A stretch of DNA of 47,385 bases from Gemmatimonadota bacterium (GTDB lineage: Bacteria > Gemmatimonadota > Gemmatimonadetes > Gemmatimonadales > Gemmatimonadaceae), in NCBI GenBank assembly GCA_040389905.1, contig JAZJZK010000001.1, positions 1 through 47,385 on the forward strand. Direction: 5' to 3'. A program made the position numbers and the translations under genes. Below the pieces are notes generated by a model. That model did no database searches. It saw only the letters and a program-made list of their open reading frames with translations, and had not been told where the DNA came from. Below are positions 29,720 through 43,361 of this stretch, one piece after another. The stretch's first letter is position 1. Each line of letters opens with the position of its first letter.

Positions 29720-31232
29720 TGTCAAGCGCGGATAGAAATGTCCCCTTCGCGGAGCGGATAGAAATGTCCCCTTGGTTAGAGTGCAAACTCAAAATCAGGG
29801 CTGGTGGTCAACAGGTCGTCGGTCGCGCGGCTGGCGCGTTACAGGATAGAGACGCCACGGATGATCCGGTGCGGGGCGTGATGGCGGACGAAACGCCGCG
29901 ACCGGCGGGGCATCGACGATCGGTGGTGCGATCGGCCGGGCGACGGGAGCGCGCGCGATCGCCGGCGTCCACGCGCAGACCCGCTCGCGTCCGTCGCGTC
30001 CGACATGGATGACCCGCACGCGTTGGTCGACCGTCTCGCGCACCAGCACCTGACTCTTCGCGGGCACGCGGCCGCGCGCGGCACGATCCAGTTGCAGGCC
30101 CTGGCCCTGGTACTGGACGACATAGTCCTGGCCCACCACGCGCGTCTCCTCGAGACAGAAGACATCGTCGTCCCGCAGGCGCCGATCGCGCGCGCGATGA
30201 TGATCGACGGCACTCGCCGGCGCCACCGCGAAGCGCGCGTTGTGCGTCGGGAGATACGTCGCGCCGAGGTACGCATTCGCGGCCGTATCGTCGCTGATCC
30301 CCCGCAGCCGCATCTTCTTGATGAGCCGATCCTGCTGGGTCCCGTGACTCCGCTCCACCCGCCCCTTCGCCTGGGGACTCGCCGCGCCGATGATGGCGAT
30401 GTCGAGCTTCTGGCACATGCGACCGAAGGCCGTGTAGGGCGTGTCGCCGCGCGCCCGCTCGTTGACCGTCGGTTCCCGCTTGTAGACGTTCTTCCAATCG
30501 GTGTACAGCGCCCGCGGCACGCCGTGCGCGTCGATCCACGCCCGCAGCAGCGCGACGGCGGCCCACGTCGTTTCCTCCGCGCCGAACTGGAGCAGCGTCG
30601 TGCTGGTCGCGTCATCGACCAACGCCATCATGCAGCTGCGTTTGCCCGCGCGCTCCCCACGGCCTTCAAACCAATCGTGAAAGCTGCCGTCGAGCTGGAG
30701 CAGCTCGCCGAAGTGCGCTTTCCGCTCGCGACGCACCTTGGTGGGCCGGCTCCGCCGCACGCGACTCCAGAGGCCCGCGTCGCGCATCCAGTCGCGCAAC
30801 GTCGAGCGCGCCACCAGCATCGCGTGATCGATCCAGAGATGTTCCGCCACCAACGTCGGGCCGAAGCGCTGCCCGGGTCCCTTGGCCAGCGGGCCGCTGT
30901 AGTGCGCGCGAATCAAGGCGAGGACGGCGGCCCGCTCCGTCGCCGCGCACGCGCGATTCGACGGTCGGCCCACATTCCCATGCACCAGCGCCTTCGCGCC
31001 ATGGGCGCGATACCGGCGCCAGATGCGCTTCGCCTGTCGATAGCTCACACCCAACAACGGCACGGCATCCGTCAATGTCAGCGTGCCGGCCGCGACCCGC
31101 GCCAGCACCGATCCTCGGGAAATCTCTTTACGACTCATCGCTGTCCGCTCCACACCAACCTCCTCAGAGGCCAGTAGGTTAGGGGACAGTTCTATCCGCG
31201 TCCCGAGGGGACACTATCATCCGCCGACAACA
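29720..31232 (-). mobile_element. Insertion sequence, IS1202-family (ISNCY), 1513 bp
   Basis: 5'-TGT...ACA-3' ends; two copies of GCGGATAGAAATGTCCCCTT at the left end and two inverted variants at the right end (31181-31224); flanked by a duplicated GGGGGGCGAGAAACAG. Confidence 0.88.
29795..31153 (-). CDS. DDE transposase (ISNCY/IS1202 type)
   Basis: 452 aa; N-terminal HTH (LLGVSYRQAKRI), HGNVGR, LLQLDGSFHDWF, LYTDWKN, SPQAKGRVERSHGTQQDRL. Confidence 0.92.
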   Translation of the reverse strand: MERTAMSRKEISRGSVLARVAAGTLTLTDAVPLLGVSYRQAKRIWRRYRAHGAKALVHGNVGRPSNRACAATERAAVLALIRAHYSGPLAKGPGQRFGPTLVAEHLWIDHAMLVARSTLRDWMRDAGLWSRVRRSRPTKVRRERKAHFGELLQLDGSFHDWFEGRGERAGKRSCMMALVDDATSTTLLQFGAEETTWAAVALLRAWIDAHGVPRALYTDWKNVYKREPTVNERARGDTPYTAFGRMCQKLDIAIIGAASPQAKGRVERSHGTQQDRLIKKMRLRGISDDTAANAYLGATYLPTHNARFAVAPASAVDHHRARDRRLRDDDVFCLEETRVVGQDYVVQYQGQGLQLDRAARGRVPAKSQVLVRETVDQRVRVIHVGRDGRERVCAWTPAIARAPVARPIAPPIVDAPPVAAFRPPSRPAPDHPWRLYPVTRQPRDRRPVDHQP

Positions 31233-31491: not shown

Positions 31492-31935
31492 CTACTCGCC
31501 ACCAAGGCGCCGCGAAAGAACAACCAGTCTCCGCGCCAACTCGAGAATCCGCCCCACCGCCGCGCGTTGCCCCTCTGGCATTGGTTCGAGCGAAAGCAGC
31601 TGTGCCTCAGCCAGCAGGGCCGTGAGCGGATTGCTGAACGCGTGTTGAAGCGTCAAGGCAGCGCCGCCGAGGGCAAGCTGCGCGCGCATGCCGGTGAGTT
31701 CACGAAGTGCGGCGTCGATGTCCGCGTCGTAACCGCGCTCGACTCCGTGTGTCAGACGATACTCCCGTTCCGCGAGGAGCGCGCGGATGAGCCGGTCGGC
31801 ATCGTGATCGGGAAGCAGTTGCGCGATGAGTTCGCGCGCCAGGGACATCGAGCCCGCGGGTTCTGCAACGATCGCGGCACCGGACGTTCGCAGGCCGGGT
31901 CCGTTCGCGATCCGATCGAGGTAACTTTGTTCCAT
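31492..31935 (-). CDS. Stand-alone histidine-kinase dimerisation/phosphoacceptor (HisKA-like) protein lacking an ATPase domain
   Basis: 147 aa; H-box-like ALTLQHAFSNPLTALLAEAQLL followed by one helix and a stop; GAGG upstream. Confidence 0.65.
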   Translation of the reverse strand: MEQSYLDRIANGPGLRTSGAAIVAEPAGSMSLARELIAQLLPDHDADRLIRALLAEREYRLTHGVERGYDADIDAALRELTGMRAQLALGGAALTLQHAFSNPLTALLAEAQLLSLEPMPEGQRAAVGRILELARRLVVLSRRLGGE

Positions 31936-32530
31936 GGCTTCCTCTTCTCAACACGATGTGACTGCCGCGTTCGCGGCCGCCGTACAAGAGTATCGGCAGC
32001 GCGGCGATATCGCAGTACTAATTGACCGCATAAAGGATCTTTCCAACGCAACCGATCCAGAAACACTCGGGCGTGTTTCAGCGCCGTATCGCGATCTGCC
32101 CGAAGTGGTGATCCCGGTATATGAGCGTGTGGTGGCGGCGTCTCCGCACGACGCGCAGGCGATGGTAATCCTCGCGAACGCGTACTGGATCACGGGGCGC
32201 GGATCGGATGTTGTTGGCGCATTGGCCTCGCGTGCCATTTCTGTGGACGCGGGCAACCGGGGCGCGTGGCACCTGTGGGCGTTAAGTGAGTCCAATCCTC
32301 GTGAGCGTGTCGAACGGTGGACGCTCGTCACCACGCACTTTCCAACGGACCAGCTGGCGCGCGCGGCGCTGGCGGACAACGCCGCGAGCCTCGCCGGCGC
32401 TGAACACGACCCACTCGCGCTGGATCTCGCCGTTCGCACGTACGAGGGACTCTGGGCCGAGGCGAGCCGTGCGGAGGAGCGTCTCGCGCTCGAGGAGACG
32501 ATTGCGAAGTTGAAAGGCTGGAAACTCTAG
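31934..32530 (+). CDS. Hypothetical helical-repeat protein
   Basis: 198 aa Ala-rich helical ORF with TPR-like segments (YERVVAASPHDAQAMVILANAYW; AISVDAGNRGAWHLWA); start uncertain. Confidence 0.65.
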   Translation: MASSSQHDVTAAFAAAVQEYRQRGDIAVLIDRIKDLSNATDPETLGRVSAPYRDLPEVVIPVYERVVAASPHDAQAMVILANAYWITGRGSDVVGALASRAISVDAGNRGAWHLWALSESNPRERVERWTLVTTHFPTDQLARAALADNAASLAGAEHDPLALDLAVRTYEGLWAEASRAEERLALEETIAKLKGWKL

Positions 32531-32931
32531 GCGCTCTGTCCTCGCGCATCGCGCGCGCGTTTCGGCGCGATGGTGTCGACGGCGGCGATGAGCTCGCGCA
32601 ACTCGAACGGCTTCCGAATCGCGGGGCAGCGACAGGAGAGAATGAGCTTGTGTGCGCGCTCGGTGATGTCGCCCGTCATGAAGAGCGTCTGCGTGCGCAG
32701 GTGCGGATGTGTCGCTGCGGCGAGCTCGAACACCACGTCGCCGCGCGTATCTGGAATGCGCAAGTCGATCACCAGCACGTCGATATGCTCGGAGCGGAGC
32801 GTGGCGAGCGCGCTATCACCCGACTGGGCCGTCCGCGCGTCGTAGCCTGCACGCGTGAGCGCGATCGAGAGCGCTCGGCAGATTGCCGGCTCGTCATCCA
32901 CAACAAGAACCCGTATTAGATCCGACTGCAT
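32527..32931 (-). CDS. Single-domain response regulator (CheY-like)
   Basis: 134 aa; VLVVDDE, phospho-Asp in LVIDLRIP, FMTG, RKPF. Confidence 0.92.
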   Translation of the reverse strand: MQSDLIRVLVVDDEPAICRALSIALTRAGYDARTAQSGDSALATLRSEHIDVLVIDLRIPDTRGDVVFELAAATHPHLRTQTLFMTGDITERAHKLILSCRCPAIRKPFELRELIAAVDTIAPKRARDARGQSA

Positions 32932-32995
32932 CCCGTAGTCTCACGCCTCGTGCATGGCCCGTCGTTCGGTACCAAGCGCCGCGGCGTCGCGAGCA

Positions 32996-33805
32996 CTACG
33001 GTGGTGAACGATCGGTTGATTCTTCTTCCTCCGCATCGGGCTGGCGCAGTCGATTCGCCAGGAGCCGGACGAACATCTCTGGTGGAACGGAGCGCCGAAT
33101 CTCCTTGGGCGCGCGTCCCGTCCAGTCGTGCAACAAACTGCTCAGCGTATCGGGATCCGCATACCCGAGCTTTGCCGATATTTCCTTCAACCTGCTTCCG
33201 GGCGCGCGCAACAACGTGTAGGCCCTGAGTAACCGCGCGCAGATGATGAGATGCCGCGGTTGCAATCCTGCCGGCGTCATGTGCCGGTAAAGTGACCGGG
33301 GAGCCATTCCGGCCAGCCGTGCCAGCTCCTGACTGTTCTTCACGCGAGCGGGTGAGCGGAAGAGCTGCTCGATTGCCCGTGTCACAACCACTGGCAGCGC
33401 CCGCAGGGGAGTCGCCAGTTCCTGCAACATCAACTCCGCCATCGGGTGAGCCGGCACGCGCTCGATGAGGTCGAGGAAGCGGCGCGGTTCGTCGTCGAAG
33501 CGGTTGAGCACGACCTGATGAACGCCGAGTGGAGCCAGTCGCACGACGAGCCGGATGGCCATGGGTGCGAGCGTCGTGTAGACGATGACGGGGAGGGTAG
33601 GGTGTCCCGCGATCATCTCCACGATTTCGTCGGAGAACTGTCCCTCGCGCATGGCCGGATCGACGATCAGGAGATCCGCCGCCTCGGCCCTGAGGAGTGA
33701 GTGCAGCTCCGCCGGATCTGCGGCCGCATTGAGGACGTGCAAGTCCCCAAGCACAACGCGCAGATGCGTCAACAGGTTGCGTGGCAGCAAAACGACGACG
33801 TGCAA
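32996..33805 (-). CDS. AraC-family regulator with atypical receiver-like N-terminus (copy 1, intact)
   Basis: 269 aa, TTG start; DLLIVDP and PVIVYT; two HTHs ELARLAGMAPRSLYRHM and LKEISAKLGYADPDTLS. Confidence 0.85.
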   Translation of the reverse strand: MHVVVLLPRNLLTHLRVVLGDLHVLNAAADPAELHSLLRAEAADLLIVDPAMREGQFSDEIVEMIAGHPTLPVIVYTTLAPMAIRLVVRLAPLGVHQVVLNRFDDEPRRFLDLIERVPAHPMAELMLQELATPLRALPVVVTRAIEQLFRSPARVKNSQELARLAGMAPRSLYRHMTPAGLQPRHLIICARLLRAYTLLRAPGSRLKEISAKLGYADPDTLSSLLHDWTGRAPKEIRRSVPPEMFVRLLANRLRQPDAEEEESTDRSPP

Positions 33806-33834
33806 TGACGGGCTGGAGAGGGGTTGGCGAGAAT

Positions 33835-33862
33835 ACCGGGTTTTTGGTCACAAAATGCCGGT
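33835..33862. promoter_or_regulatory. Candidate operator between AraC copy 1 and the peptide gene
   Basis: Imperfect palindrome ACCGGGTTTTTG-GTCA-CAAAATGCCGGT; GTCACAAAATGCCGGT matches 14/16 the motif upstream of TPR copy 1. Confidence 0.5.
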
Positions 33863-33937
33863 TTACCCGCCGCCTCGCGAGCCTAGCCTTCCGGTGTGGT
33901 TCTAATCGAACCGTGTTTCCCACCACCGGAGTCTACA

Positions 33938-34063
33938 ATGTCGCGTCGTCAAATCGCTTTTCTGGTTATTGCGCTGGCCTCCTTTGCGGTTTCTGCATGT
34001 GGGTCGTCGCCGACGGCGCCGAAGCGTGATGATACGATCGTAACGGTTGGTGGCACGGGCTGA
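33938..34063 (+). CDS. 41-aa secreted lipoprotein-type peptide, candidate signalling propeptide
   Basis: Below the ORF-track cutoff; GGAG 6 nt before ATG; MSRRQIAFLVIALASFAVSACGSSPTAPKRDDTIVTVGGTG: basic n-region, hydrophobic h-region, lipobox VSAC. Confidence 0.8.
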   Translation: MSRRQIAFLVIALASFAVSACGSSPTAPKRDDTIVTVGGTG

Positions 34064-34074
34064 AATCCTTTCGG

Positions 34075-35313
34075 CTAGCGCAGAACCACATGCGCAGTCT
34101 GTCGCGCGTGTATTTCTCGAACAATTTCTGCAAGCCCGTCTGGAATGGGTGACTCATCCTGCGCAACTCGGGGAATATCCGAAAGCCCTGCCAGTTGAGC
34201 TTCAGCGTGAAATACAAGCCGATTGTATCCGTATTGTTGCGCGAACTCGATGGCGTTTACGAGATTGCGGCGCGCGCCCTCGTTGTTCCCAAGTCGCGAG
34301 AGGCCCTCGCCTGCGTGGACGAGAAACTGCGCGCGGAGCAGCGGCGGCAGCGCCTGACCATCCAGGTAACGACGGTGACGTTCAAAGAGGGGCAATGATC
34401 CGTCGTCGGACGCGATTTCCATCAGGTTGATGATCGCGGCCCACCGTACGTACTGCTCCTGCGCCGTTACGGAGAGCAGAACATACGCGTCTCGTGCGGC
34501 GCTTCGGATTCCCAGCTTGTAAAATGCTCCGGCAATGTCCGCGAGCATTCGATCGCGCGCCCGATCGTCTCCGAGTTTGTCGAGCGCTTCATATCCGAGT
34601 TTAATTGCGTACTCATAGTCGCCCTTCAAGTGGGCAACGTCCGATCGCTCCTGGATGGCGGCGGCGCGAAACTGCTGGAGATCCGCGAGCTCGGCGCGCC
34701 GAATCGTGTCGTCGAGCATGATTTCGGCGCGCGGATAGTTGCCACGCGCAACGGAAACCTTCGCCTCAGCGATACGCGCGTGCAGCGATCCAACCAAGTC
34801 GCCGACGGCCTGCGCGATGATACCCGCCTGAGCTGCCACTTCTTCGGCAACGTCGAGTTCACCAAGCTGGCGACGGCAGATGCTCAGGCGAACGTGCGCG
34901 CGAATCGCATCGTCACTCTCCTGTGTTGGATGTGTGTACGCGATGACCGTTTCGTATACGTCGGCTGCGAGATGCCACTTGGCATCGGTGTCCAGGCTCT
35001 GCGCATACGCCATGAGTCGCGGCGCAACGACATGCATGTCGCCACAGCGCGCTGACGTCAGCGCATCGAGCGTACTCGTGAGAATCGCGCGAGCGGGCGT
35101 GCCCAGCGGCATCTCCTCAATTGCGGCTGCAACCGAGCGAATACCCCAGCCATCGGCAGCGACGGCCGCCGCACCTTCCTCAATCCACGTGTCGACGAGA
35201 CGCAGCACGACTAGCCCCGCGCTCACCGACCGCCACGACGGATCGTTCTCGTCGAGCGACGCCAGCTCGGAAAAAAACGGCATGTGCCGCAATGGCTGCG
35301 TTGGCTCGAACAC
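34075..35313 (-). CDS. TPR-like helical-repeat protein (copy 1, intact)
   Basis: 412 aa, GTG start after GAGGAG; repeats such as RGNYPRAEIML and KGDYEYAIKLGYEAL; no signal peptide; paralog of 36411-37676. Confidence 0.82.
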   Translation of the reverse strand: MFEPTQPLRHMPFFSELASLDENDPSWRSVSAGLVVLRLVDTWIEEGAAAVAADGWGIRSVAAAIEEMPLGTPARAILTSTLDALTSARCGDMHVVAPRLMAYAQSLDTDAKWHLAADVYETVIAYTHPTQESDDAIRAHVRLSICRRQLGELDVAEEVAAQAGIIAQAVGDLVGSLHARIAEAKVSVARGNYPRAEIMLDDTIRRAELADLQQFRAAAIQERSDVAHLKGDYEYAIKLGYEALDKLGDDRARDRMLADIAGAFYKLGIRSAARDAYVLLSVTAQEQYVRWAAIINLMEIASDDGSLPLFERHRRYLDGQALPPLLRAQFLVHAGEGLSRLGNNEGARRNLVNAIEFAQQYGYNRLVFHAEAQLAGLSDIPRVAQDESPIPDGLAEIVREIHARQTAHVVLR

Positions 35314-35393
35314 TCAGCTTCTCTCCTCGACACGATGATTCAGCGGGCACTTCACTACGTGGGGAGTGTCGGCACTTTCATCAAAAGCATCAA

Positions 35394-35430
35394 GGGGGTT
35401 TTTCTGACGGAAACACCGGTGTTTTGTGAC
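35394..35430 (-). promoter_or_regulatory. Candidate operator upstream of TPR copy 1
   Basis: Minus strand GTCACAAAACACCGGT (35430-35415), a related GTCAGAAAAACCCCC 22 bp further on, and a perfect palindrome AAACACCGGTGTTT at 35411-35424. Confidence 0.5.
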
Positions 35431-35607
35431 GTTATCCACATCGCACGTGACACCAAAATGATTGTTCGTCAGAAGAACATTCGGCGAATTCCGCGATTAG
35501 AAAACTCTAGGCGAGAAACACTTCGTTAGGTGGTAACGAAAATCTCCTCGGCGTCGACGTGAGCTCGTACCAACAGCAACTGATGCACATCGCTCGGCCT
35601 CTTGCGC

Positions 35608-36411
35608 TCACCGCGCGACCGCAAGGCCCGCGTCACTATCGGCTGAGCGAAGCAGTCTGGCGACGACCATTGTGACGAATTGCTCTGGCGGAAGGGCGTC
35701 GCGCGCCGCTGTCGGCGTGAGCCCTGTCCAGTCACGCATGAGATCGCTGAGTGTGCGCGGATCTGCGAATTGGAGCCTGGCGTTGATCTGCTTCATCTGG
35801 CTGCCCGGCATGCGCACGAGTGAGTAGGCCCGCACGACGTGAGAGCAGTCAATGAGATGTCGTGGTTGAAGTCCAGCGGCGGCCATGCGCCGATACATCG
35901 ACCGGCGTGTCATGCCCGCCAACTCGGCCAACTCTGCGCCATGCTTCACACGCGTCGGGGACCGAAACATAAGCTCGATGGCGCGGACGAGTCTCACGGG
36001 AAGGCCAGACGTCAGCTGCGAGATCTCACGCAACATGGTTGCCTCGACAGGATCCAGCAGAATGCGATCCATCAACTCGAGGAAGAGCTGCGTGCCATCA
36101 TCGATGTCATAAAGCATCAGATGTCGAACGCCAAACTGTCCCAGGCGAAGTGTCAGCCCCATCGCTTTGGCGGAGACGTTCGTGTATATCAAGATGGGAC
36201 GATGATCCAGCCGGTCTTCCGCGCACGTGAAGGCGTCCACGAATTCACTGTCCCGCCACGTCGGGTCCACGACGAGCACATCTCCGTCACGGGACAAACT
36301 CGGCTAGAGAGCCTCATGCGCGTCGCACGCCGCATGAACGTGGTATGCGTCGCCAGCCAGGACGATCAGCCGAGTCAGCATCGCTGCGGGGAGCAGGGCG
36401 ATGATACGCAC
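35608..36411 (-). pseudogene. AraC-family regulator copy 2, interrupted by an in-frame TAG at codon 36
   Basis: From GTG 36411: MRIIALLPAAMLTRLIVLAGDAYHVHAACDAHEAL*PSLSRDGDVLVVDP..., collinear with copies 1 and 3; TAG at 36306-36304; the remaining 229 codons are open. Confidence 0.8.
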
Positions 36412-37676
36412 TAATCGAGCTCACCGCGATGCTCACACCCAATGAGTGCGAGCTCGCGCAGCGATCTCAGGTCAGCGACAATCGACTCGATATCGTTCGG
36501 TACGACGGAGGCCGGCGCCGGTGCTCGCTGATCCGTCAACGTCGAAGTGACGGCAATGGCGTTCTCACAGGCAAAGATGAGTTGATTGAATTCGTGCGTG
36601 CAGGCGCGCTCCAGTGCTCGGACAATCCATGGGTCGGCCTCATCGCGCTCACCGAGCATCTGATAGCTCCGGCCAGCGTGCAGCTCGAATTGCGTGCGGA
36701 AGGCCGGCGACAGGTCCGCCCCGGTCAGGCGCCTTCTATAGTCGTCGAACTCTACCCTGTTTCCATCCGCCGCCGCGAGCTCCATCAGGTTGATCATGCA
36801 GGCCGAGCGCAGAACGTTTTCCTCCGCCGTAAAGGCAAGGATCAGGAAGGCATCGCGAGCGGCGGCCCGAACGCCAAGCATGACAAAGCTGCTCGCGAGA
36901 TCACCGAGGATTCGCTCCCGTAGCGACAGCTCCGTCGCTCCTTGCAACGCCGCGTATCCAAACCGTAGGGCCGCGTGGTACTGTCCCCGAGCGAACGATA
37001 CGGCCGCAAGCTCGTGAAGGGCCACGGAGCGCACGTCGCCGAGTGAGGACTCCTCCGCCAGACGGGCGGTATCCGTCAGCATGCGCTCGCCGAGTGGCAG
37101 GTTTCCGCGAAGGTAAGCGAGCTTCCCGAGCCCGATCCGCGCCTCCAGTTGACCTCGCACAGACGCACCGCGTCGCGCGAGTTCAGTGGCGTCGTTATAA
37201 GAGAGTGCCGCCTCATCGATCCGGCCGAGGTCGCGAAGGCAGGCGCCGCGCCGGTTCATCGCATCAACGACAACGTGCGAATTGTCCGCGACATCCAGAT
37301 GCTCGATGATCGTGTCGTACACGTCCAGCGCCAAGGCCCACTCCCCGGCGCGTTGGAGGGCGGCGCCATACTCGACCAGCGCAATCCCGGCGGGCCTCCG
37401 ATCGGTCTCCGCAGCGCCGCGCATGGCATCGAGCAGGTTCTCCAGCGCACCGCGAATCGCAGACACGCCGGGCATCTCCGCCAGTTCACGGCGAGTGGAT
37501 CTCTCCAACTGAGTGTTGTCGCTGAGCGCCATGGCGCCGGCTCGCATCCATGTGTCCACGAGCCGCAGCGCGAGTAGGCCGGCGCGGGCGCTGGTTGACG
37601 ACGCTACGCCATCCTGGAGCGACGCAATTCGCTCGATGAATATGAGGTGCTTCACCGGCTGCTGAGTCGCACCCAA
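36411..37676 (-). CDS. TPR-like helical-repeat protein (copy 2, intact)
   Basis: 421 aa, TTG start after GAGGA; shares AGL..LRL.DTW, W.LA.DVY.T, RGN.P, LG.R.AARDA, INLME.A, N.L.F..E with copy 1; its stop overlaps the AraC2 start (TAGTG). Confidence 0.82.
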   Translation of the reverse strand: MGATQQPVKHLIFIERIASLQDGVASSTSARAGLLALRLVDTWMRAGAMALSDNTQLERSTRRELAEMPGVSAIRGALENLLDAMRGAAETDRRPAGIALVEYGAALQRAGEWALALDVYDTIIEHLDVADNSHVVVDAMNRRGACLRDLGRIDEAALSYNDATELARRGASVRGQLEARIGLGKLAYLRGNLPLGERMLTDTARLAEESSLGDVRSVALHELAAVSFARGQYHAALRFGYAALQGATELSLRERILGDLASSFVMLGVRAAARDAFLILAFTAEENVLRSACMINLMELAAADGNRVEFDDYRRRLTGADLSPAFRTQFELHAGRSYQMLGERDEADPWIVRALERACTHEFNQLIFACENAIAVTSTLTDQRAPAPASVVPNDIESIVADLRSLRELALIGCEHRGELD

Positions 37677-38019
37677 GGGGTCCTCGAGAAGAAGGGAACA
37701 ATGAATCGACGATTCACTATGCGTGCGTACGCAGCGTGCCTATTCTGTCCCAATGCCCCGATCGTCGCAAGCCCGACGTTAATGAGCGGCGACTATCAGC
37801 TATTGCGCGACTTCCCACAGGACAGGAAGGCACAAGGCCGGACGCCTCTTAGAGTGCCGCGCGGCAGCGGGATGGCTCAAGAACCACGGCAAGATGTCTC
37901 AGCCAGCACCTTGCGGCACCGGCGAAGGTAGGGCTCCAGGGCATCGTCACCGGCGAAGAATGGCAACGGCGCCACTCGAAAGAGCGCACGTCGACCGCAT
38001 CTTGCCGCGAGAAGTTGGT

Positions 38020-38822
38020 TCAGTGTGCGAGGACAAGCCCTTCGGCAGCGGCGGTTGAGCGGAGCAGCTTCGTCACCATGATGCCCACGAATTCTTCTTG
38101 GCGCAGACTGTCGCACACGAGTCTCGGAGTGACTCCGGTCCACTCCCGCACGAGATCGCTGAGCGTTTGCGGATCTGCGAACCCGAGTCTCGCGCTCACA
38201 TGCTTCATTCGCCCGCCTTGCATGCGCAACAGCGAGTACGCACGCACGACATACGCGCAGTTGACGATATCGCGGGGCTGCAACCCGGCGGCCGCCATGT
38301 GTCGGTACATTGACCGCCGTGTCATACCGGCGACTCGCGCCAACTCGGCACCGTGTCGTATCGAAGATGGCGTTCGAAAGAGCAAGGCATCGCTCGGATC
38401 AGCGGATCCGGCAGCGTCGACGTGAGCCTGGACACCTCGCGTAGCATCAGTTCTTCGACAGGAGCCGACGCAATTCGTTCGATCAGTTCGAGGACGAGCG
38501 CCGGATCATGGTCGACATCGAAGAGCAATAGATGCCGAACGCCAAGTTGTCCCAGACGGAGGGTCTGGCCCATCGCCTCAGCCGAGACGGCCGTGTACAT
38601 CACGATAGAACAATGATCCAGCGGCGCTCCAGCTGAAATGAAGGCATCCGTGAATGCTCCGTCGCGCCAAGTCGGGTCCACCACCAGGACCTCGGTGTCT
38701 CCCGCGCGGTGCGGCCGAAAGACTTCCAGCGGATCACTGAGGGCTTGAATGTGGTGCGCGTCACCGACCATCGCGGTGAGACGAGTCAGCAAGGCGTCGG
38801 GAAGCAGGGTAGCAATGCGCAC
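38020..38822 (-). pseudogene. AraC-family regulator copy 3, frameshifted near 38388
   Basis: N-part in ORF 38322-38822 (to PDPLIRA), C-part in ORF 38020-38385 (LLFRTPSSIRHGAELARVAGMTRRSMYRH); adding one base restores collinearity with copy 2 (LVRAIELMFRSP). Confidence 0.82.
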
Positions 38823-38837
38823 GTCCGCGTTGCCTGA

Positions 38838-40082
38838 CTACTCGATCGCGGCGACCGCGAGTTCGCGGAGCGATCTCAGGTCGATGGCGATTTCCTCGAG
38901 ATCACTCGGTATGATGGATTCCGGCGTCGGAATTCGCTGGTCTAGCGGTGCGTCATTGACGGCGAGGGCATCTTCGGCGGCGAAGATGAGTTGATTGAAG
39001 GAGTACTCTGAGGCATTCACCAAGGCGCGTTCGAGCCACTCGCGCGCGGCTGCCCGGTTGCCGAGGTACTGATACCCTCTCCCCACATGCAGTTCGAACT
39101 GCGTGCGAAGTGCCGGTGGAAGCGTCGCGCTCAGAAGCTCCTCCTTGTATCGCTCGAAAAGCGATATCGAGGCATCCTGCGCTGCGATTTCCATCAAATT
39201 GATCGTCGCGACCCAACGCGGGGATTGTTCACGTGCCGTCGCGGCAACAATCGTATACGCGTCCCGCGCGGCAGATCGCACGCCGAGCATGAACAGCGCC
39301 GACGCAAAGTCGCTGAGAATCCGCTCCCGCTCCGATGCTGATGTATTCTCTCGGAGCGCGGCGTACCCGAGTCGCACGGCGCGATGGTATTGCCCGCGTT
39401 CAAACGCGACGTTTCCCCGCGTGCGTGCGTGGCTCGCGACCAAACTTCCGTCAGTGAGTGAATACTCGCACGGTGTACCGTGTCGGTCAGGATCTCATCG
39501 GCACGCGGCAAATTGCCGCGGCTGACCGCATTCTTGGCGACTCCAATCTGAGCACGCAACTCACCGCTGACGAAACCGATCGCAATCGCCCGGTTGCGGG
39601 CTGTCTCGTGCGTTGCCGCCGCGCCAGCGAGCTCGCCAAGCTCCCGGAAACAGGCTCCACGGCGGTTCAACGCGTCGACAACGAGCGAACCAGTGGCGTG
39701 AACATCGAAGTGCTCGACGATCGTGCCATACACGTCCAGTCCGAGGTGCCATTCCGCTTCGGATTCCAAGGCAAAGCCGTAGTCCATGAGTGCCGAACCT
39801 ATGGCGGTCACCGGCACTTGGAGCGCTCACCGCATCAAGCACACTCTCGAGATGAGCCCGGATCTCGCACGTGTCCGGAATCCGTGCGAACTCCGCGCGG
39901 GCGGACCGCATAAGGCGCGTCACCGGGTCAATCGCGGTCGCTCCGATGCGCATCCACGTATCGAACAGGCGCAACGTAAACAAGCCAGCCCGTACGCGGT
40001 CGGATGTTGGCGCGTCATCGCCGTGCATCGCTAGCTGCTCGATGAACGCCAGATGCCGCAGCGGAAGGGGGTGACTACTCAA
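38838..40082 (-). pseudogene. TPR-like protein copy 3, two frameshifts (near 39793 and 39415)
   Basis: Homology to copy 2 is split over three frames: MSSHPLPLRHLAFIEQL...DRHRFG (TTG 40082), ALMDYG...SRATHARG, GNVAFERGQY...LRSLRELAVAAIE. Confidence 0.82.
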
Positions 40083-40595
40083 CCGCCGACGATCCGTGGT
40101 GACGGACGGATCACTTCTCTGCACAACACGCGCTCGCAACAGGTTGGATTCATCTGGCATCCATTCTGTGTCGCACGCCGCGTTACGGCAAGGTCGCTCA
40201 GCAAAAGGGAACGGTGATCGGTCCCATCCGGCCGTTGCGCCGATCGTTCGCCGCGACGAATCTTGCACCTCGGGCGCATTGTGTCGATGCCATTCGTCCG
40301 TCCGGCCCACCGTCTCAGTGGTCGTCGGTCCGCGATGCGGGTCATCGTCTCTTAGCCAGCGTTGTGCTGTTCTCTCGCGCGCCTATCGGTCAGTTGGCTC
40401 AAACAAGGGGGTAATGTGTCTCAGTTAACGGGTTGTGGCAGTCGATGGCGATCGGGAATCTTAGGTGCACGTACAGTGAGCACAGCAATTCTCGCATTAC
40501 CGATGATCACCACAAACACTCAGCATTCCCTACTCGCCGTGAAGCTCAAGGTACTCCCCCCGATTAGCGGACGAATCAGGACGGTCAAGGGGTTC

Positions 40596-41894
40596 GTGTG
40601 CGCGCGGGTGACACAGTACGCCGCGTTGTGTCTCGTCGCGGGAGCGGAGGCGGGCGTTGCACAGATTCGGTGCCCGCTAACCGAGTGGACCGTGCCGCGC
40701 GCCATCAAGACGGATGCTGGAGTGCTCGCCTACGTCGAAAGTCCCGCGATTCTCCCGTCCGCCAACGGGATTACGCTTGTGGGCTCGCCCACGCTGGAAT
40801 GGGGAGCGAAGGTGGAGCGGTCGGGAACCCGCGACACAATTCGACTCGCGGGCGCGATAGAGCATCCGTGGATTGGTGTGTACGCAGGCCAGACGCTGCA
40901 AGGCATCCCGAGGCCGTTAGGGGCGAACGTGACGCGCAATCCCGTGACCGTGCCACTGCGCGATCATGCAGTGGTGTTCTGGTCGGAAGCGGGCGACTCG
41001 ACGGTGAGCCCGACGCTCATCGCGTCGGAGATCTGGACCGCGACGTTGACCAGCGCGGGAGTCAGGGGGCGCACTCTCGCTCTCGGTGCACAGGAAATCA
41101 GGTGGGGGCGCGGCATGGCCGGATCCGCGCTTGTCGGTGGAGACCCCGCCTTTGCGGCGGCGGCATCAGATCGGAATCCACAGTCGCGGCACCAGGGCAT
41201 CGTCTTCGTCAGGGGGCGTGGTGTGACTTGGAAAACGACCTGGATCGACTTTGCAGGGATGCCGCCGACCTATGTCACCATGGCAGCAAGCGGCAATCAC
41301 GCCGTGGTCGCATTCATAGGGTCGGTCGAAGCCAGAGTATCCGCGACGCAGGGAGTGTTCGTCGTCGAGTCGACCGATGGTGGTGCCACCTGGACGGCAC
41401 CATCCGCGGTTCACGTGTTCGCCAATGGGGAGTACAGCGGTGCACCACGACTGACGCTCGAGTCATCAGGCCGAATGTCTCTGTTCTGGGGCGTGAGATA
41501 TGAGCCACGGTCGACTTTCGAACGGATCGCGATCGCGTCGTTTGATCCTGGCGCTCGTTCCTGGACGATCGATTCACCACTCTCGTTCGCCGACGGTAGC
41601 AATGTGCTGGATGTTCTCCTGGGTCCCGGAAACGTGCCCTGGGTACTCACACGCAGCTCACCCGGGCACACGCTTCGCATCTCTCGGCGCGATCAACCCG
41701 GCTCGACCTGGGAAACCGGTGTGCTTCCACTCGGACATATCGCCGCCTCGGTGCCGACAATGGCGTTTCTCGACTCGAACCGCTTGCTCGTTGCCGTCGG
41801 CGTGCCATTCGGGCCGTCGGAAATTGGCGGCTTGATCCTTCCACAACCGGTACTCATGACGATGGAGCACACGCTTTCGTGCGCCCCTCGGTGA
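40596..41894 (+). CDS. Hypothetical secreted beta-rich protein with a BNR/Asp-box motif
   Basis: Open frame from 40362; GTG 40596 after AAGGGG gives a signal-like N-terminus ending GVA-Q; ESTDGGATW Asp-box. Start uncertain. Confidence 0.6.
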   Translation: MCARVTQYAALCLVAGAEAGVAQIRCPLTEWTVPRAIKTDAGVLAYVESPAILPSANGITLVGSPTLEWGAKVERSGTRDTIRLAGAIEHPWIGVYAGQTLQGIPRPLGANVTRNPVTVPLRDHAVVFWSEAGDSTVSPTLIASEIWTATLTSAGVRGRTLALGAQEIRWGRGMAGSALVGGDPAFAAAASDRNPQSRHQGIVFVRGRGVTWKTTWIDFAGMPPTYVTMAASGNHAVVAFIGSVEARVSATQGVFVVESTDGGATWTAPSAVHVFANGEYSGAPRLTLESSGRMSLFWGVRYEPRSTFERIAIASFDPGARSWTIDSPLSFADGSNVLDVLLGPGNVPWVLTRSSPGHTLRISRRDQPGSTWETGVLPLGHIAASVPTMAFLDSNRLLVAVGVPFGPSEIGGLILPQPVLMTMEHTLSCAPR

Positions 41895-41951
41895 GTGCTG
41901 TGCGCGGCGCCCAAACGGGCGCGCATAACTCATCCCTCGAGGAGGTCCTGC

Positions 41952-43361
41952 ATGAAGGCGTTGCGACGGCTGTCTGCCACTCTCGTGTTGGGGTACGCCA
42001 TGATTGGTGGATGCGCCGACGTCGGGACATCCCCGCGCTCGGATACCAGCAGCTCCGGTCAGGCTGGAAACCACCCCAATCCTACGAGTTCCCGTGCGGC
42101 ACACGTGTTCTCCGGAGCCGAGGCCGACTCGATGGCGTCCGCGACGGCGGCGCGCTGGGCCGCGCTTGGCGATGACCGCTTCAAGCACGCGCTCGAGCGC
42201 GACGCGGCGAAGCACAGCGCCGCGATCGCCGCTTTTGCAGCGCGACAGAAGCATTCGACCATTGCTGCCTCGTTACTTCCGGCTGGAGATCCCGTGCTCG
42301 ACAACTGGCCGACACCAGCCCTCTTTCCGACCGCTGACATCCTCGCGACGAGTACATCGCCGACCGCGTACCTCGCAGAGGGCGCCGTCACGTCGGCGGT
42401 CACTCTGTTCGGGACGCACGGGGCGAACACGATCACCGCAAGTGCGGTCGCCAGCGACGGCTTCATCATTCGCGATGCCGCGGCGTTCGGCCGAACCTCG
42501 GGTCTCACCCCCGAGGCCAACAACTGCATGCTGAGTTTTCTCACGAATCCGATGTGCAGCTGGACCGGCACGTACATGTCGGGGGTGCTGATCGATCTTG
42601 GAAGTCGGAAGTGCGGAGTGACGATCACCGCACGAGCGGACCATGAGGCCTGGTGGGAGCTTCCATCAGTTTCCATCTCGGCCGGCCACTACTCATTCGG
42701 CACGCCGAGCGTCCGGTGGGGCGATGCCGCGCCCGTTGGCGGTTCGAACACGCCCGGTGGCAATCAACCGTGCATTCCGCCCAACGTACACTTTTCCAAG
42801 TCGGGCGGGGGATCGTCGGCGAATGACGGCGGAACGCTCACGCTGCCATTCGGCGGATCCTCCGTGTCCTTCTCGTCGTCGAGCACCTCGGGGGCGGCGG
42901 CGCTATCGCAGCATCAATGGCTCGTCGACGGGTCCGTCCAGGGCGGTTCTACGAGTTGGAGCGGCGGAATATCAGCGACGGGATCGCACACGATTGCACT
43001 CAACGTCACCGACGCCGCGGGACTTATCGGAATAGCGAGTGCGACGATCGTCGTGCGGCCCAACGAAGACGAATGCAGCGACGCGACGCTCCGAACTTCA
43101 CCGGGCTCACGAAGCACCCTGAACCGGACATCGTCGTTCTTTTCTGCAGAATGTGACCATCCCTGTGACGATCCATTTACCAGCGCTATTGAAGAGTGTG
43201 GTTCTGGCACTGGGGGAGGATCGAGCACGACCGCGTACTTCGTGGAATACCAGTATCCAAGTACCGAACTGGTGTGCGAGAAGTGGCACTACGTCGTAAC
43301 GGTTGGCGGATACTTCTCTAGCGAGTATTGGGAACTGGAAAACTGCCACGAGGCCATGTGA
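41952..43361 (+). CDS. Hypothetical lipoprotein with PKD-like domain and Cys-rich acidic C-terminus
   Basis: GGAGG RBS; lipobox IGGC; VSFSSSS...HQWLVDG...GSHTIALNVTDAAG PKD-like pattern; multiple Cys in the tail. Confidence 0.7.
   Translation: MKALRRLSATLVLGYAMIGGCADVGTSPRSDTSSSGQAGNHPNPTSSRAAHVFSGAEADSMASATAARWAALGDDRFKHALERDAAKHSAAIAAFAARQKHSTIAASLLPAGDPVLDNWPTPALFPTADILATSTSPTAYLAEGAVTSAVTLFGTHGANTITASAVASDGFIIRDAAAFGRTSGLTPEANNCMLSFLTNPMCSWTGTYMSGVLIDLGSRKCGVTITARADHEAWWELPSVSISAGHYSFGTPSVRWGDAAPVGGSNTPGGNQPCIPPNVHFSKSGGGSSANDGGTLTLPFGGSSVSFSSSSTSGAAALSQHQWLVDGSVQGGSTSWSGGISATGSHTIALNVTDAAGLIGIASATIVVRPNEDECSDATLRTSPGSRSTLNRTSSFFSAECDHPCDDPFTSAIEECGSGTGGGSSTTAYFVEYQYPSTELVCEKWHYVVTVGGYFSSEYWELENCHEAM

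Follow-up and report, generated by a model that had tools for sequence, protein, structure and literature searches.

A candidate peptide-sensing cassette with Rap-Phr-like features conserved in the diderm phylum Gemmatimonadota

The question raised by a repeated gene array in a Gemmatimonadota bacterium (family Gemmatimonadaceae) was whether it encodes a peptide signalling system in a cell with an outer membrane, and how much of it is still intact. The array lies at positions 32,996 to 40,082 of the analysed window, a stretch of 47,385 nucleotides from contig JAZJZK010000001.1 (assembly GCA_040389905.1), and comprises three units in which a gene for a tetratricopeptide repeat (TPR) protein is followed by an AraC-family gene (Table 1). 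The original prediction had taken these for three same-strand units, with a 41-aa exported peptide encoded in unit 1, and had proposed that a peptide-sensing TPR receptor controls its AraC partner through a degenerate receiver domain. The six coordinate pairs given there were correct and each of these genes lies on the minus strand; unit 1 matches its description, with both TPR1 (412 aa) and AraC1 (269 aa) intact. The announced tamAB and outer membrane protein genes were found in the window as well, as TamA/TamB-type genes (Omp85+POTRA and TamB), outer-membrane assembly genes from which the host cell is read as having an outer membrane. The idea of three working units did not survive, since three of the six large genes are broken and a peptide gene is present in unit 1 only. 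As for the exported peptide, the open reading frame (ORF) is present, but it lies on the opposite strand and its signal is of the lipoprotein type rather than one for plain secretion. Unit 1 is rather likely to be a peptide-sensing circuit that would work like Rap-Phr, and the Rap-Phr-like cassette that it represents is conserved in this diderm phylum and apparently unpublished.

The conservation of the cassette was evaluated from homologues of TPR1, of which 807 were recorded among 8,000 candidates scored, and 618 clusters were matched at E <=1e-10 in a 50%-identity library; all informatively named relatives were Gemmatimonadota. With a 137-sequence TPR profile, matches were obtained in 168 of 301 genomes from the phylum (E <=1e-10; weak matches may be generic TPRs), with positives in 56 of the 69 genomes of the host's family and 76 of the 125 of the sister family, while an AraC profile matched 201 of the 301 (E <=1e-40), a count that includes related AraCs outside cassettes; four unpublished genomes are part of the first tally and three of the second. 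Gene neighbourhoods were read in regions chosen by hand among the matches, namely 80 of the places that had full flanks and the 30 top loci. Of loci L001-L136, 12 were set aside, ten because they came from the own genome, one as unpublished and one as a duplicate, and 123 TPR matches at E <=1e-20 reaching the C-terminus were kept, 118 of them with enough downstream DNA; kin among these loci cannot count as independent, and two pairs or more consist of identical proteins. Lipoprotein signals were called by a custom lipobox pattern, and the lipobox is thus a selection criterion for all the propeptides collected. A convergent lipobox ORF was found within 400 bp downstream of 107 of the 118 TPR genes, a same-strand AraC gene within 800 bp downstream of 109, and both in 102, against a background of 76 ORFs matching the pattern in the own genome, equivalent to 0.003 per equal window (0.3%); one further peptide, at L088, was added by a looser scan. 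The arrangement is far beyond chance, and the linkage of TPR homologues to AraC genes and to small exported ORFs that had been claimed was borne out. The same layout is kept across two families, in other orders and in unlinked paralogous cassettes.

One such unlinked cassette with the same layout occurs in the own genome on contig C14 (L137:3652-5977), where a 404-aa TPR-like gene without a Pfam hit is accompanied by a receiver-like AraC and by a convergent propeptide gene (C14:204376-204573, minus strand) for a 65-aa product with a lipobox and a Cys-closed tail. Its TPR-like protein was missed by the TPR profile and was related to it by hhalign (probability 88%, E 2.8e-6), and its receptor clade was present in 22 of the 301 genomes with the same three genes. 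A divergent 192-aa ORF without a Pfam hit lies upstream of this cassette. On contig C24 (L074:18-2523) a related AraC gene has downstream of it, in the same orientation, the gene for a 181-aa lipoprotein without a Pfam hit and a TPR gene of about 400 aa, an arrangement that differs in having the larger lipoprotein in place of the peptide. A stand-alone canonical receiver follows the AraC gene in 54 of the 70 cassettes with room for it, as in unit 1, and may be a possible output or second target; in the L077-L096 set, which holds the most paralogous copies, it is present in only 7 of 16 and missing in 9 of 16. In the ESM Atlas, look-alike TPR clusters are commonest in Acidobacteriota and Bacteroidota (score 0.94) and may mark similar cassettes in further diderm phyla.

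The propeptide of unit 1 shows an N-terminal Arg pair, a hydrophobic stretch, a lipobox (VSA-C, with the Cys at position 21), a Pro/Thr linker and a variable tail, and its orthologues are 61-72% identical and occupy the same position. Among 109 relatives the propeptides are 38-60 aa long. In all 10 pairs of the five equal-length orthologues, the ratio of nonsynonymous to synonymous differences per site (pN/pS) was 0.12-0.51, and 176 of the 293 codon differences fell at third positions; the gene is, judged from its codons, under purifying selection. What the 124 propeptides collected have in common is the lipoprotein signal, together with a short linker of Pro/Thr and a tail that varies, and in 110 of them the lipobox Cys is followed by Ala, Ser or Thr; sequence is hypervariable in the tails and stereotyped in signal and linker. 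Seven of the 124 (L130, L131, L144, L145, L147, L148 and L154) carry a tandem unit of 6-7 residues in 2-5 copies, and it is likely that these repeats define the length of the mature signal. The stops of the TPR and propeptide genes are a median of 27 bp apart in the 124 cassettes (11 bp in unit 1, 34064-34074), with a spacing of <=20 bp in 53 of the 124 and touching or overlapping genes in 17, so that little room is left for terminators. TPR transcripts may run antisense across the peptide gene into AraC, and such read-through would fit the direct TPR-AraC coupling of units 2 and 3, where TPR2 and AraC2 overlap and TPR3 and AraC3 are 15 bp apart. Two LspA proteins (signal peptidase II), three family-5 peptide-binding proteins and one proton-dependent oligopeptide transporter (POT) are encoded in the genome, while SbmA/BacA was not found in the 85%-complete assembly. 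A reading of the product as a ribosomally synthesised and post-translationally modified peptide was set aside, since the loci read, which were looked at unsystematically, show no modifying enzyme as part of the cassette.

Covariation between tail and receptor was calculated on 103 paired cassettes, with the overall TPR and AraC distance removed. Tail similarity was tracked more closely by the 35 columns of the TPR groove (mean r 0.025) than by the remaining 223 repeat columns (mean r 0.000), with p 5.5e-4 in a rank test and none of 40 permutations reaching that level. For signal and linker there was no groove excess (p 0.95 and 0.26, respectively), and the groove-tail excess reached p <0.05 in 11 of 12 settings of tail length and subset. 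Judged from these alignments, the tail covaries weakly but specifically with the groove columns, which supports peptide sensing by the TPR protein. The signal peptide as the active pheromone was rejected on the same control, given that it did not covary with the groove.

The TPR superhelix claimed for the receptor was recovered in an AlphaFold2 (AF2) model of TPR1 with high confidence (predicted local distance difference test, pLDDT, 95.9; predicted template modelling score, pTM, 0.90), all-helical and of Rap-like extent, comprising an N-terminal helical bundle (helices 25-46, 48-66 and 73-87 come before the repeats), seven helix-pair repeats of ~40 aa and a C-terminal helix. As had been stated, no helix-turn-helix (HTH) was seen in TPR1, either in a Pfam scan or in the AF2 model. 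The best structural matches were LGN (Z 24.1, root-mean-square deviation [rmsd] 4.3, 289 aligned), which was also the top match by Foldseek, and Pins (Z 23.9); beneath them, Rap folds stood at Z ranks 3, 6, 8 and 11, and the matches included Rap pLS20 (Z 21.3, rmsd 7.2, 321 aligned, model residues 28-364), RapH (Z 20.9, rmsd 5.3, 304 aligned, model residues 27-364), a phage Rap (Z 20.5), MalT domain III (Z 20.1), NprR (Z 18.7) and AimR (Z 16.0). The aligned range covers the Rap N-terminus, as a range only and with no residue-level correspondence. In the proposed comparison with Rap, AimR and NprR, generic TPR scaffolds came out ahead of Rap pLS20 and RapH. The same was seen with sequence profiles, where NprR (E 1e-5 to 4e-5) and RapJ (within 1e-5 to 1e-4) both ranked below generic TPRs. 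All Pfam matches of TPR1 were under the cut-off, TPR_MalT being the best; TPR_12 was over the cut-off in TPR2 and was found in 90 of 103 family members, and no RRNPPA-specific model (the class of Rap, Rgg, NprR and PlcR, together with PrgX and AimR) was present among 25 of the 28 Pfam and 23 of the 23 NCBIfam families listed for the 103 members. The concave face of a TPR superhelix is lined by repeat positions 2, 5, 6, 9 and 13, and the conserved polar residues on that face are His/Gln221, Asp/Glu222, Arg255, Asp259, Asn296 and Glu299 (Q221 and E222 in TPR1); TPR2 keeps the groove residues H221, E222, R255, D259, N296 and E299 (TPR1 numbering). Rap phosphatases have a catalytic Gln, and no conserved Gln was found in the N-terminal bundle of the TPR family. 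AraC-TPR fusions were absent among proteins of 472-2000 aa, which is weak evidence; two single proteins, neither of them used as support, combine a TPR part with a regulator, namely a 680-aa AraC+TPR protein (P0257, one member, with a junction that looks like read-through) and a 644-aa protein with an extracytoplasmic function sigma factor and TPRs (P0186, several sources, possibly an artefact).

The N-terminal domain of AraC1 had been called a degenerate receiver, and this was upheld by its model and by the family alignment. Pfam assigned HTH_18 (E 1e-13) and Response_reg (E 0.01), and the AF2 model (pLDDT 93.3) shows the five strand-helix units of a receiver fold followed by an AraC double HTH, with FixJ, the PhoP receiver and AraC domains as best fold matches; HTH_18 was found in 103 of 103 family members. 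The phosphorylation site of a receiver consists of an acidic pair, a phospho-acceptor Asp, a Thr/Ser and a Lys. Asp49 is kept in AraC1 (Asp in 86% and Glu in 10% of the 103) and so is Thr77 (Thr in 63%), while the acidic pair after strand 1 is absent (L7-P8 in AraC1, Leu/Val-Pro in the family), as is the Lys after strand 5 (N101-R102 in AraC1, no conserved Lys in the family). Because the acidic pair and the Lys are missing family-wide, control of AraC1 by phosphorylation appears unlikely.

Operators of AraC-family proteins usually take the form of direct repeats in tandem, spaced by two helical turns and adjacent to the -35 element, and repeats of this kind were found before both the propeptide gene and TPR1 in unit 1 (Table 1). 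A motif, TGTCnCAAAA, emerged from 99 peptide-AraC intergenic regions (17 bits vs. 8 in shuffles), and a half-site matrix was trained on the promoters of 98 relatives, with the window excluded. A partner half-site occurred at exactly 21 bp in 70% of promoters and at other offsets in <=5%. The tandem site was detected in 74 of the 98 peptide promoters, a count made on the matrix's own training set, and in 18 of 95 TPR upstream regions, compared with 2/98 and 0/95 on reverse strands, 0/98 in coding sequence and 0 in shuffles. In the 5.08-Mb genome, the repeat upstream of TPR1, which is conserved in L001-L005, L042 and L045, was the best of 22 matches and that upstream of the propeptide gene ranked 10 of 22; the other 20 formed no coherent regulon, as judged by ORF listing in the 7 inspected. 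Both unit 1 repeats are followed after 6 bp by a -35-like hexamer, a weak one for the propeptide gene (33862-33867, with a -10-like hexamer at 33884-33889) and TTGATG for TPR1; these hexamers were read by eye from conserved columns, and a sigma-70/terminator scan gave nothing above chance and called neither unit 1 promoter. No tandem site was found at threshold upstream of TPR2 or TPR3. In a divergent clade the motif was absent (0 of 18 promoters) and other 10-bp direct repeats, of period 20, were found in 8 of 18 promoters (0.76 expected), so that operator and AraC appear to diverge together. The operator site is also kept in two cassettes without an adjacent AraC (L118 and L135). Most simply read, these patterns mean that every AraC binds a tandem operator of its own and activates the peptide and receptor genes; that AraC is the binder of the repeats is very probable. 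A perfect 21-bp tandem repeat on contig C7 (212476-212497, minus strand) also scored as an operator and is probably an unrelated short repeat.

Table 1. Features of the array and of its immediate flank, in positions of the window
Feature	Positions	Strand	Description
Stand-alone canonical receiver	32527..32931	-	directly after AraC1; Response_reg E 6.5e-16
AraC1	32996..33805	-	269 aa, atypical receiver domain (1-116) + AraC double HTH
Tandem direct repeat, period 21	33825..33855	+	upstream of propeptide gene; candidate AraC1 operator; 16.1 bits
Propeptide gene	33938..34063	+	41 aa; between TPR1 and AraC1, convergent on TPR1
TPR1	34075..35313	-	intact ORF, 412 aa, predicted cytoplasmic; candidate peptide receptor
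Tandem direct repeat, period 22	35400..35431	-	upstream of TPR1; candidate AraC1 operator; 24.3 bits
AraC2 pseudogene	35608..36411	-	in-frame TAG at 36304-36306 after 35 codons; start codon overlaps TPR2 stop
TPR2	36411..37676	-	intact, 421 aa; paralogue without peptide gene (orphan receptor)
AraC3 pseudogene	38020..38822	-	frameshift near 38376-38385
TPR3 pseudogene	38838..40082	-	three frame segments; shifts near 39801-39804 and 39420-39467

Units 2 and 3 bear four independent lesions spread over AraC2, TPR3 and AraC3. The region 32900-40400 is identical and gapless in one contig of a second assembly (depth 16), which comes from the probable source read run and is not an independent sample, and three neighbouring genes, taken as a lesion control, align unbroken to those of a relative. 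On these two grounds an assembly error was rejected as an explanation of the broken genes, and the lesions are therefore those of true pseudogenes. A pattern scan of the gaps flanking units 2 and 3 yielded no lipobox peptide ORF, and tblastn gave no further close TPR copy in the genome. A quick tree built from the C-terminal halves pairs TPR2 with TPR3 as sisters and puts the two in one group with receptors of the same genus and the peptide-less upstream copy in L005 (support 95), while TPR1 is placed in its own long-branch clade with L001-L005; AraC2 and AraC3 are likewise sisters, on a long branch, in a tree that leaves out the upstream AraC of L005. TPR2 is 36% identical to TPR1 and 44% to the receptor of the same-genus locus L042, whose AraC is 76% identical to AraC1; the L042 receptor is 51% identical to TPR1, and because this value exceeds that of TPR2, an ancestral type for TPR2/3 is not secure. 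Between units 2 and 3, pN (0.22-0.32) was below pS (0.58-0.67), and no upstream TPR/AraC unit was present in the 4-5 kb upstream in the closest relatives L002-L004. The cassette would have duplicated, and the upstream copy would have lost its peptide, duplicated again, been under selection for a time and be decaying now. The triplication is mostly a dead local expansion, of which TPR2 is at most the remaining functional part, and even that is doubtful. Extra TPR/AraC copies, several of them peptide-less, stand beside cassettes at L086, L088, L089, L120, L121, L017, L037 and L005; local expansion recurs in the family.

For unit 1, the preferred mechanism would run as follows. The 41-aa product, to judge from its signal, would be exported and then presumably processed and lipidated at Cys21, after which a protease would free the C-terminal tail, here about the last 7-11 residues. 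The tail would be imported into the cytoplasm, probably through an Opp/Dpp or POT transporter, and would bind in the concave groove of the modelled TPR1 fold, a step that the covariation makes very likely. TPR1, which has no DNA-binding domain, would act via AraC1, most likely by keeping hold of the non-phosphorylatable receiver domain of that protein as long as no peptide is bound; direct contact between the two proteins, whose genes are linked, is somewhat likely, and the sign of the effect is a guess made by analogy with Rap. Freed AraC1 would bind the tandem repeats and switch on both the peptide gene, as positive feedback, and the TPR gene, as negative feedback. That the circuit acts between cells, we infer.

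Several points weigh against this mechanism. Binding, processing, import and expression are all deduced, and it is not obvious how a precursor anchored by lipid inside an outer membrane would reach other cells. A Cys pair encloses the tail in 48 of 103 cases, and such Cys-closed tails fit a periplasmic disulfide better than a cytoplasmic ligand. The groove-tail effect is small, with columns and genomes that are not independent, and it did not reach significance for 8-residue tails in the de-duplicated set (p 0.09); the whole-protein mirror-distance test did not separate the tail from signal and linker (partial r with TPR 0.22 for the tail vs. 0.21 for signal/linker; nearest-neighbour 19 vs. 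27, respectively). Mutual information between TPR and AraC gave no interpretable contact cluster (effective n 74), and some peptide-bearing TPR genes have no adjacent AraC (L118, L127 and L135) or have it upstream (L129 and L132). In the structural comparison, the closest folds of the TPR1 model are generic TPR scaffolds (LGN and Pins) and not RRNPP proteins. The main operator count, moreover, was taken on training promoters.

The chief rival keeps the same circuit and supposes that the tail never leaves the producing cell, so that its return, or a build-up before export, would report on lipoprotein export, periplasmic proteolysis or disulfide formation as an envelope monitor or timer. The lipobox of every propeptide found (pattern-selected as these are) would tether it inside the envelope, and both the Cys-closed tails and the presence of an outer membrane agree with such a role; yet a housekeeping monitor would need no lineage-specific tails, and the rapid diversification of the tails, the tandem repeats in them, the presence of several cassettes in one genome and the orphan receptors are traits of social signals (PMC9765709). 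We regard this self-sensing monitor as improbable. Were the mini-lipoprotein itself the only output, an envelope effector under AraC1 with the TPR protein as a co-regulator sensing something else in the manner of the MalT sensor domain, the operator preceding the peptide gene, the TPR_MalT and MalT domain III matches, and the lack of a patterned peptide in units 2-3 and in 11 of 118 homologous TPR genes would be accounted for; the tail-specific covariation with groove columns, the repeated 6-7-mers and a convergent position fixed across deep divergence would not, and an unstructured mature chain of 21 residues makes a poor effector, which leaves this option with little probability.

A different target is envisaged if the TPR protein is a Rap-like phosphatase acting on the stand-alone receiver, with AraC only writing the feedback loop. 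The frequency of that receiver after AraC genes and the alignment of the TPR1 model with RapH from residue 27 on are in keeping with this, as is the fact that Rap dephosphorylates the stand-alone receiver Spo0F (PMC9765709). It is nevertheless judged highly unlikely, given that on duplication or move the TPR gene is accompanied by AraC but mostly not by the receiver (units 2-3, and the 9 of 16 lacking it in L077-L096), that the N-terminal bundle holds no conserved Gln, and that in units 2 and 3 it is the TPR and AraC genes that overlap or nearly adjoin. Lastly, the array might still work as three channels, with recoding or sequencing error hiding intact genes and with TPR2 and TPR3 hearing the peptides of neighbours. 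TPR2 is indeed intact and keeps its groove residues, TPR2/3 group with same-genus receptors, the L042 peptide is a Cys-closed version of the unit 1 tail, and orphan Raps are known to eavesdrop (PMC9765709); against four lesions in three genes that recur in the second assembly beside intact neighbours, and with no operator at threshold before TPR2 or TPR3, this is barely credible.

In comparison with known systems, the cassette resembles Rap-Phr of Bacillus and its plasmids and phages, the RRNPPA branch that has no HTH, in its predicted cytoplasmic TPR protein of ~400 aa with a modelled N-terminal helical bundle and no DNA-binding domain seen, in the orphan receptor copies and in the proposed action through a response-regulator-like partner, as well as in the adjacent small exported propeptide whose variable C-terminal part is sometimes tandemly repeated (PMC11343458, PMC9765709); RRNPPA propeptides can carry tandem copies (PMC11343458), and 211 of 2,734 of them are of the signal peptidase II (SPII) type (PMC9765709). 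It differs from Rap-Phr in its diderm host, in a lipoprotein propeptide in every case found, in a convergent rather than co-directional peptide gene, in the dedicated receiver-AraC gene and in the Cys pair of about half of the tails, and the sequence identity between Rap and TPR1 (9-12%) is no better than that to unrelated TPR scaffolds. With NprR, PlcR, AimR, Rgg and PrgX it would share the TPR groove as peptide pocket, whereas DNA binding here is on a separate AraC-family protein and there is no HTH in the TPR protein. Receptors of that kind exert positive feedback on the peptide gene, which is likewise proposed here. AraC1 is like YesN/AraT-type regulators in the fusion of a receiver fold to an AraC double HTH, and is set apart from these and other pseudo-receivers by the missing acidic pair and Lys, by the lack of a cognate kinase in the cassette and by an apparent TPR partner. 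In the enterococcal sex pheromones of the PrgX system, a lipoprotein signal peptide is the signal for a cytoplasmic TPR-like receptor; a lipoprotein precursor is proposed to give such a signal here too, with the difference that the tail, and not the signal peptide, covaries with the groove.

A five-point RRNPP signature was defined in a screen of Firmicutes and viruses, with the Sec/SPII tag accepted at its "relaxed" and not at its "strict" level (PMC10075063). Measured against this signature, unit 1 has a propeptide of 41 aa (range 10-100) with a lipobox-type Sec signal and a TPR receptor of 412 aa (range 250-500), and the two genes are direct neighbours at 11 bp; in units 2 and 3 the receptor has no neighbouring propeptide, and the named relatives are Gemmatimonadota, outside the RRNPPA range of Bacillota and mobile elements. 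By the comparisons made, the cassette would work like Rap-Phr, and homology to or descent from RRNPPA is not established. Full-text literature searches retrieved no published description of the cassette, although supplementary tables of genome-wide screens could list its genes. The available excerpts of PMC12700828 make no mention of Gemmatimonad or gram-negative, and cytoplasmic peptide-receptor signalling is described for Bacillota (PMC10075063, PMC9765709, PMC12700828). If the preferred reading is true, this mode of signalling extends to bacteria with an outer membrane and gains a lipoprotein precursor route and a new output, from a TPR protein to a pseudo-receiver AraC. Gemmatimonadota have few cultured members. 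The reading can be tested directly, with the tail as candidate ligand, a set of candidate residues for the pocket and two promoters that bear operator repeats. More tentatively, the cassettes might form a phylum-wide, independently evolved cell-to-cell system of diderms in which short, lineage-specific tails released from lipid-anchored propeptides cross both membranes, bind a Rap-like TPR receptor in the cytoplasm and switch a pseudo-receiver AraC, the peptide is autoinduced, and dialects arise via tandem duplication, with peptide-less copies such as TPR2 as temporary eavesdroppers that later decay. The window catches the birth and death of receptor copies, and the triplication is its least important part.

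Regarding the genes that flank the array, most close relatives keep, downstream of AraC1, the stand-alone receiver, a 198-aa protein, a 147-aa HisKA-like protein and then rho. In the window, the 198-aa protein (31934-32530, plus strand, convergent) has no Pfam hit and the 147-aa protein (31492-31935, minus strand) has a HisKA-like stretch; between rho and this last gene, a higher-GC stretch holds a 452-aa transposase-like ORF (29795-31153, minus strand) with HTH_28/HTH_32 hits, which we take to resemble IS481. On the other side, two genes divergent from TPR3 lie at 40362-43361 (plus strand): one ORF, of 510 aa, weakly matches a BNR repeat, and the other, of 488 aa, is lipoprotein-like and without a Pfam hit, with an N-terminus that resembles that of the propeptide.

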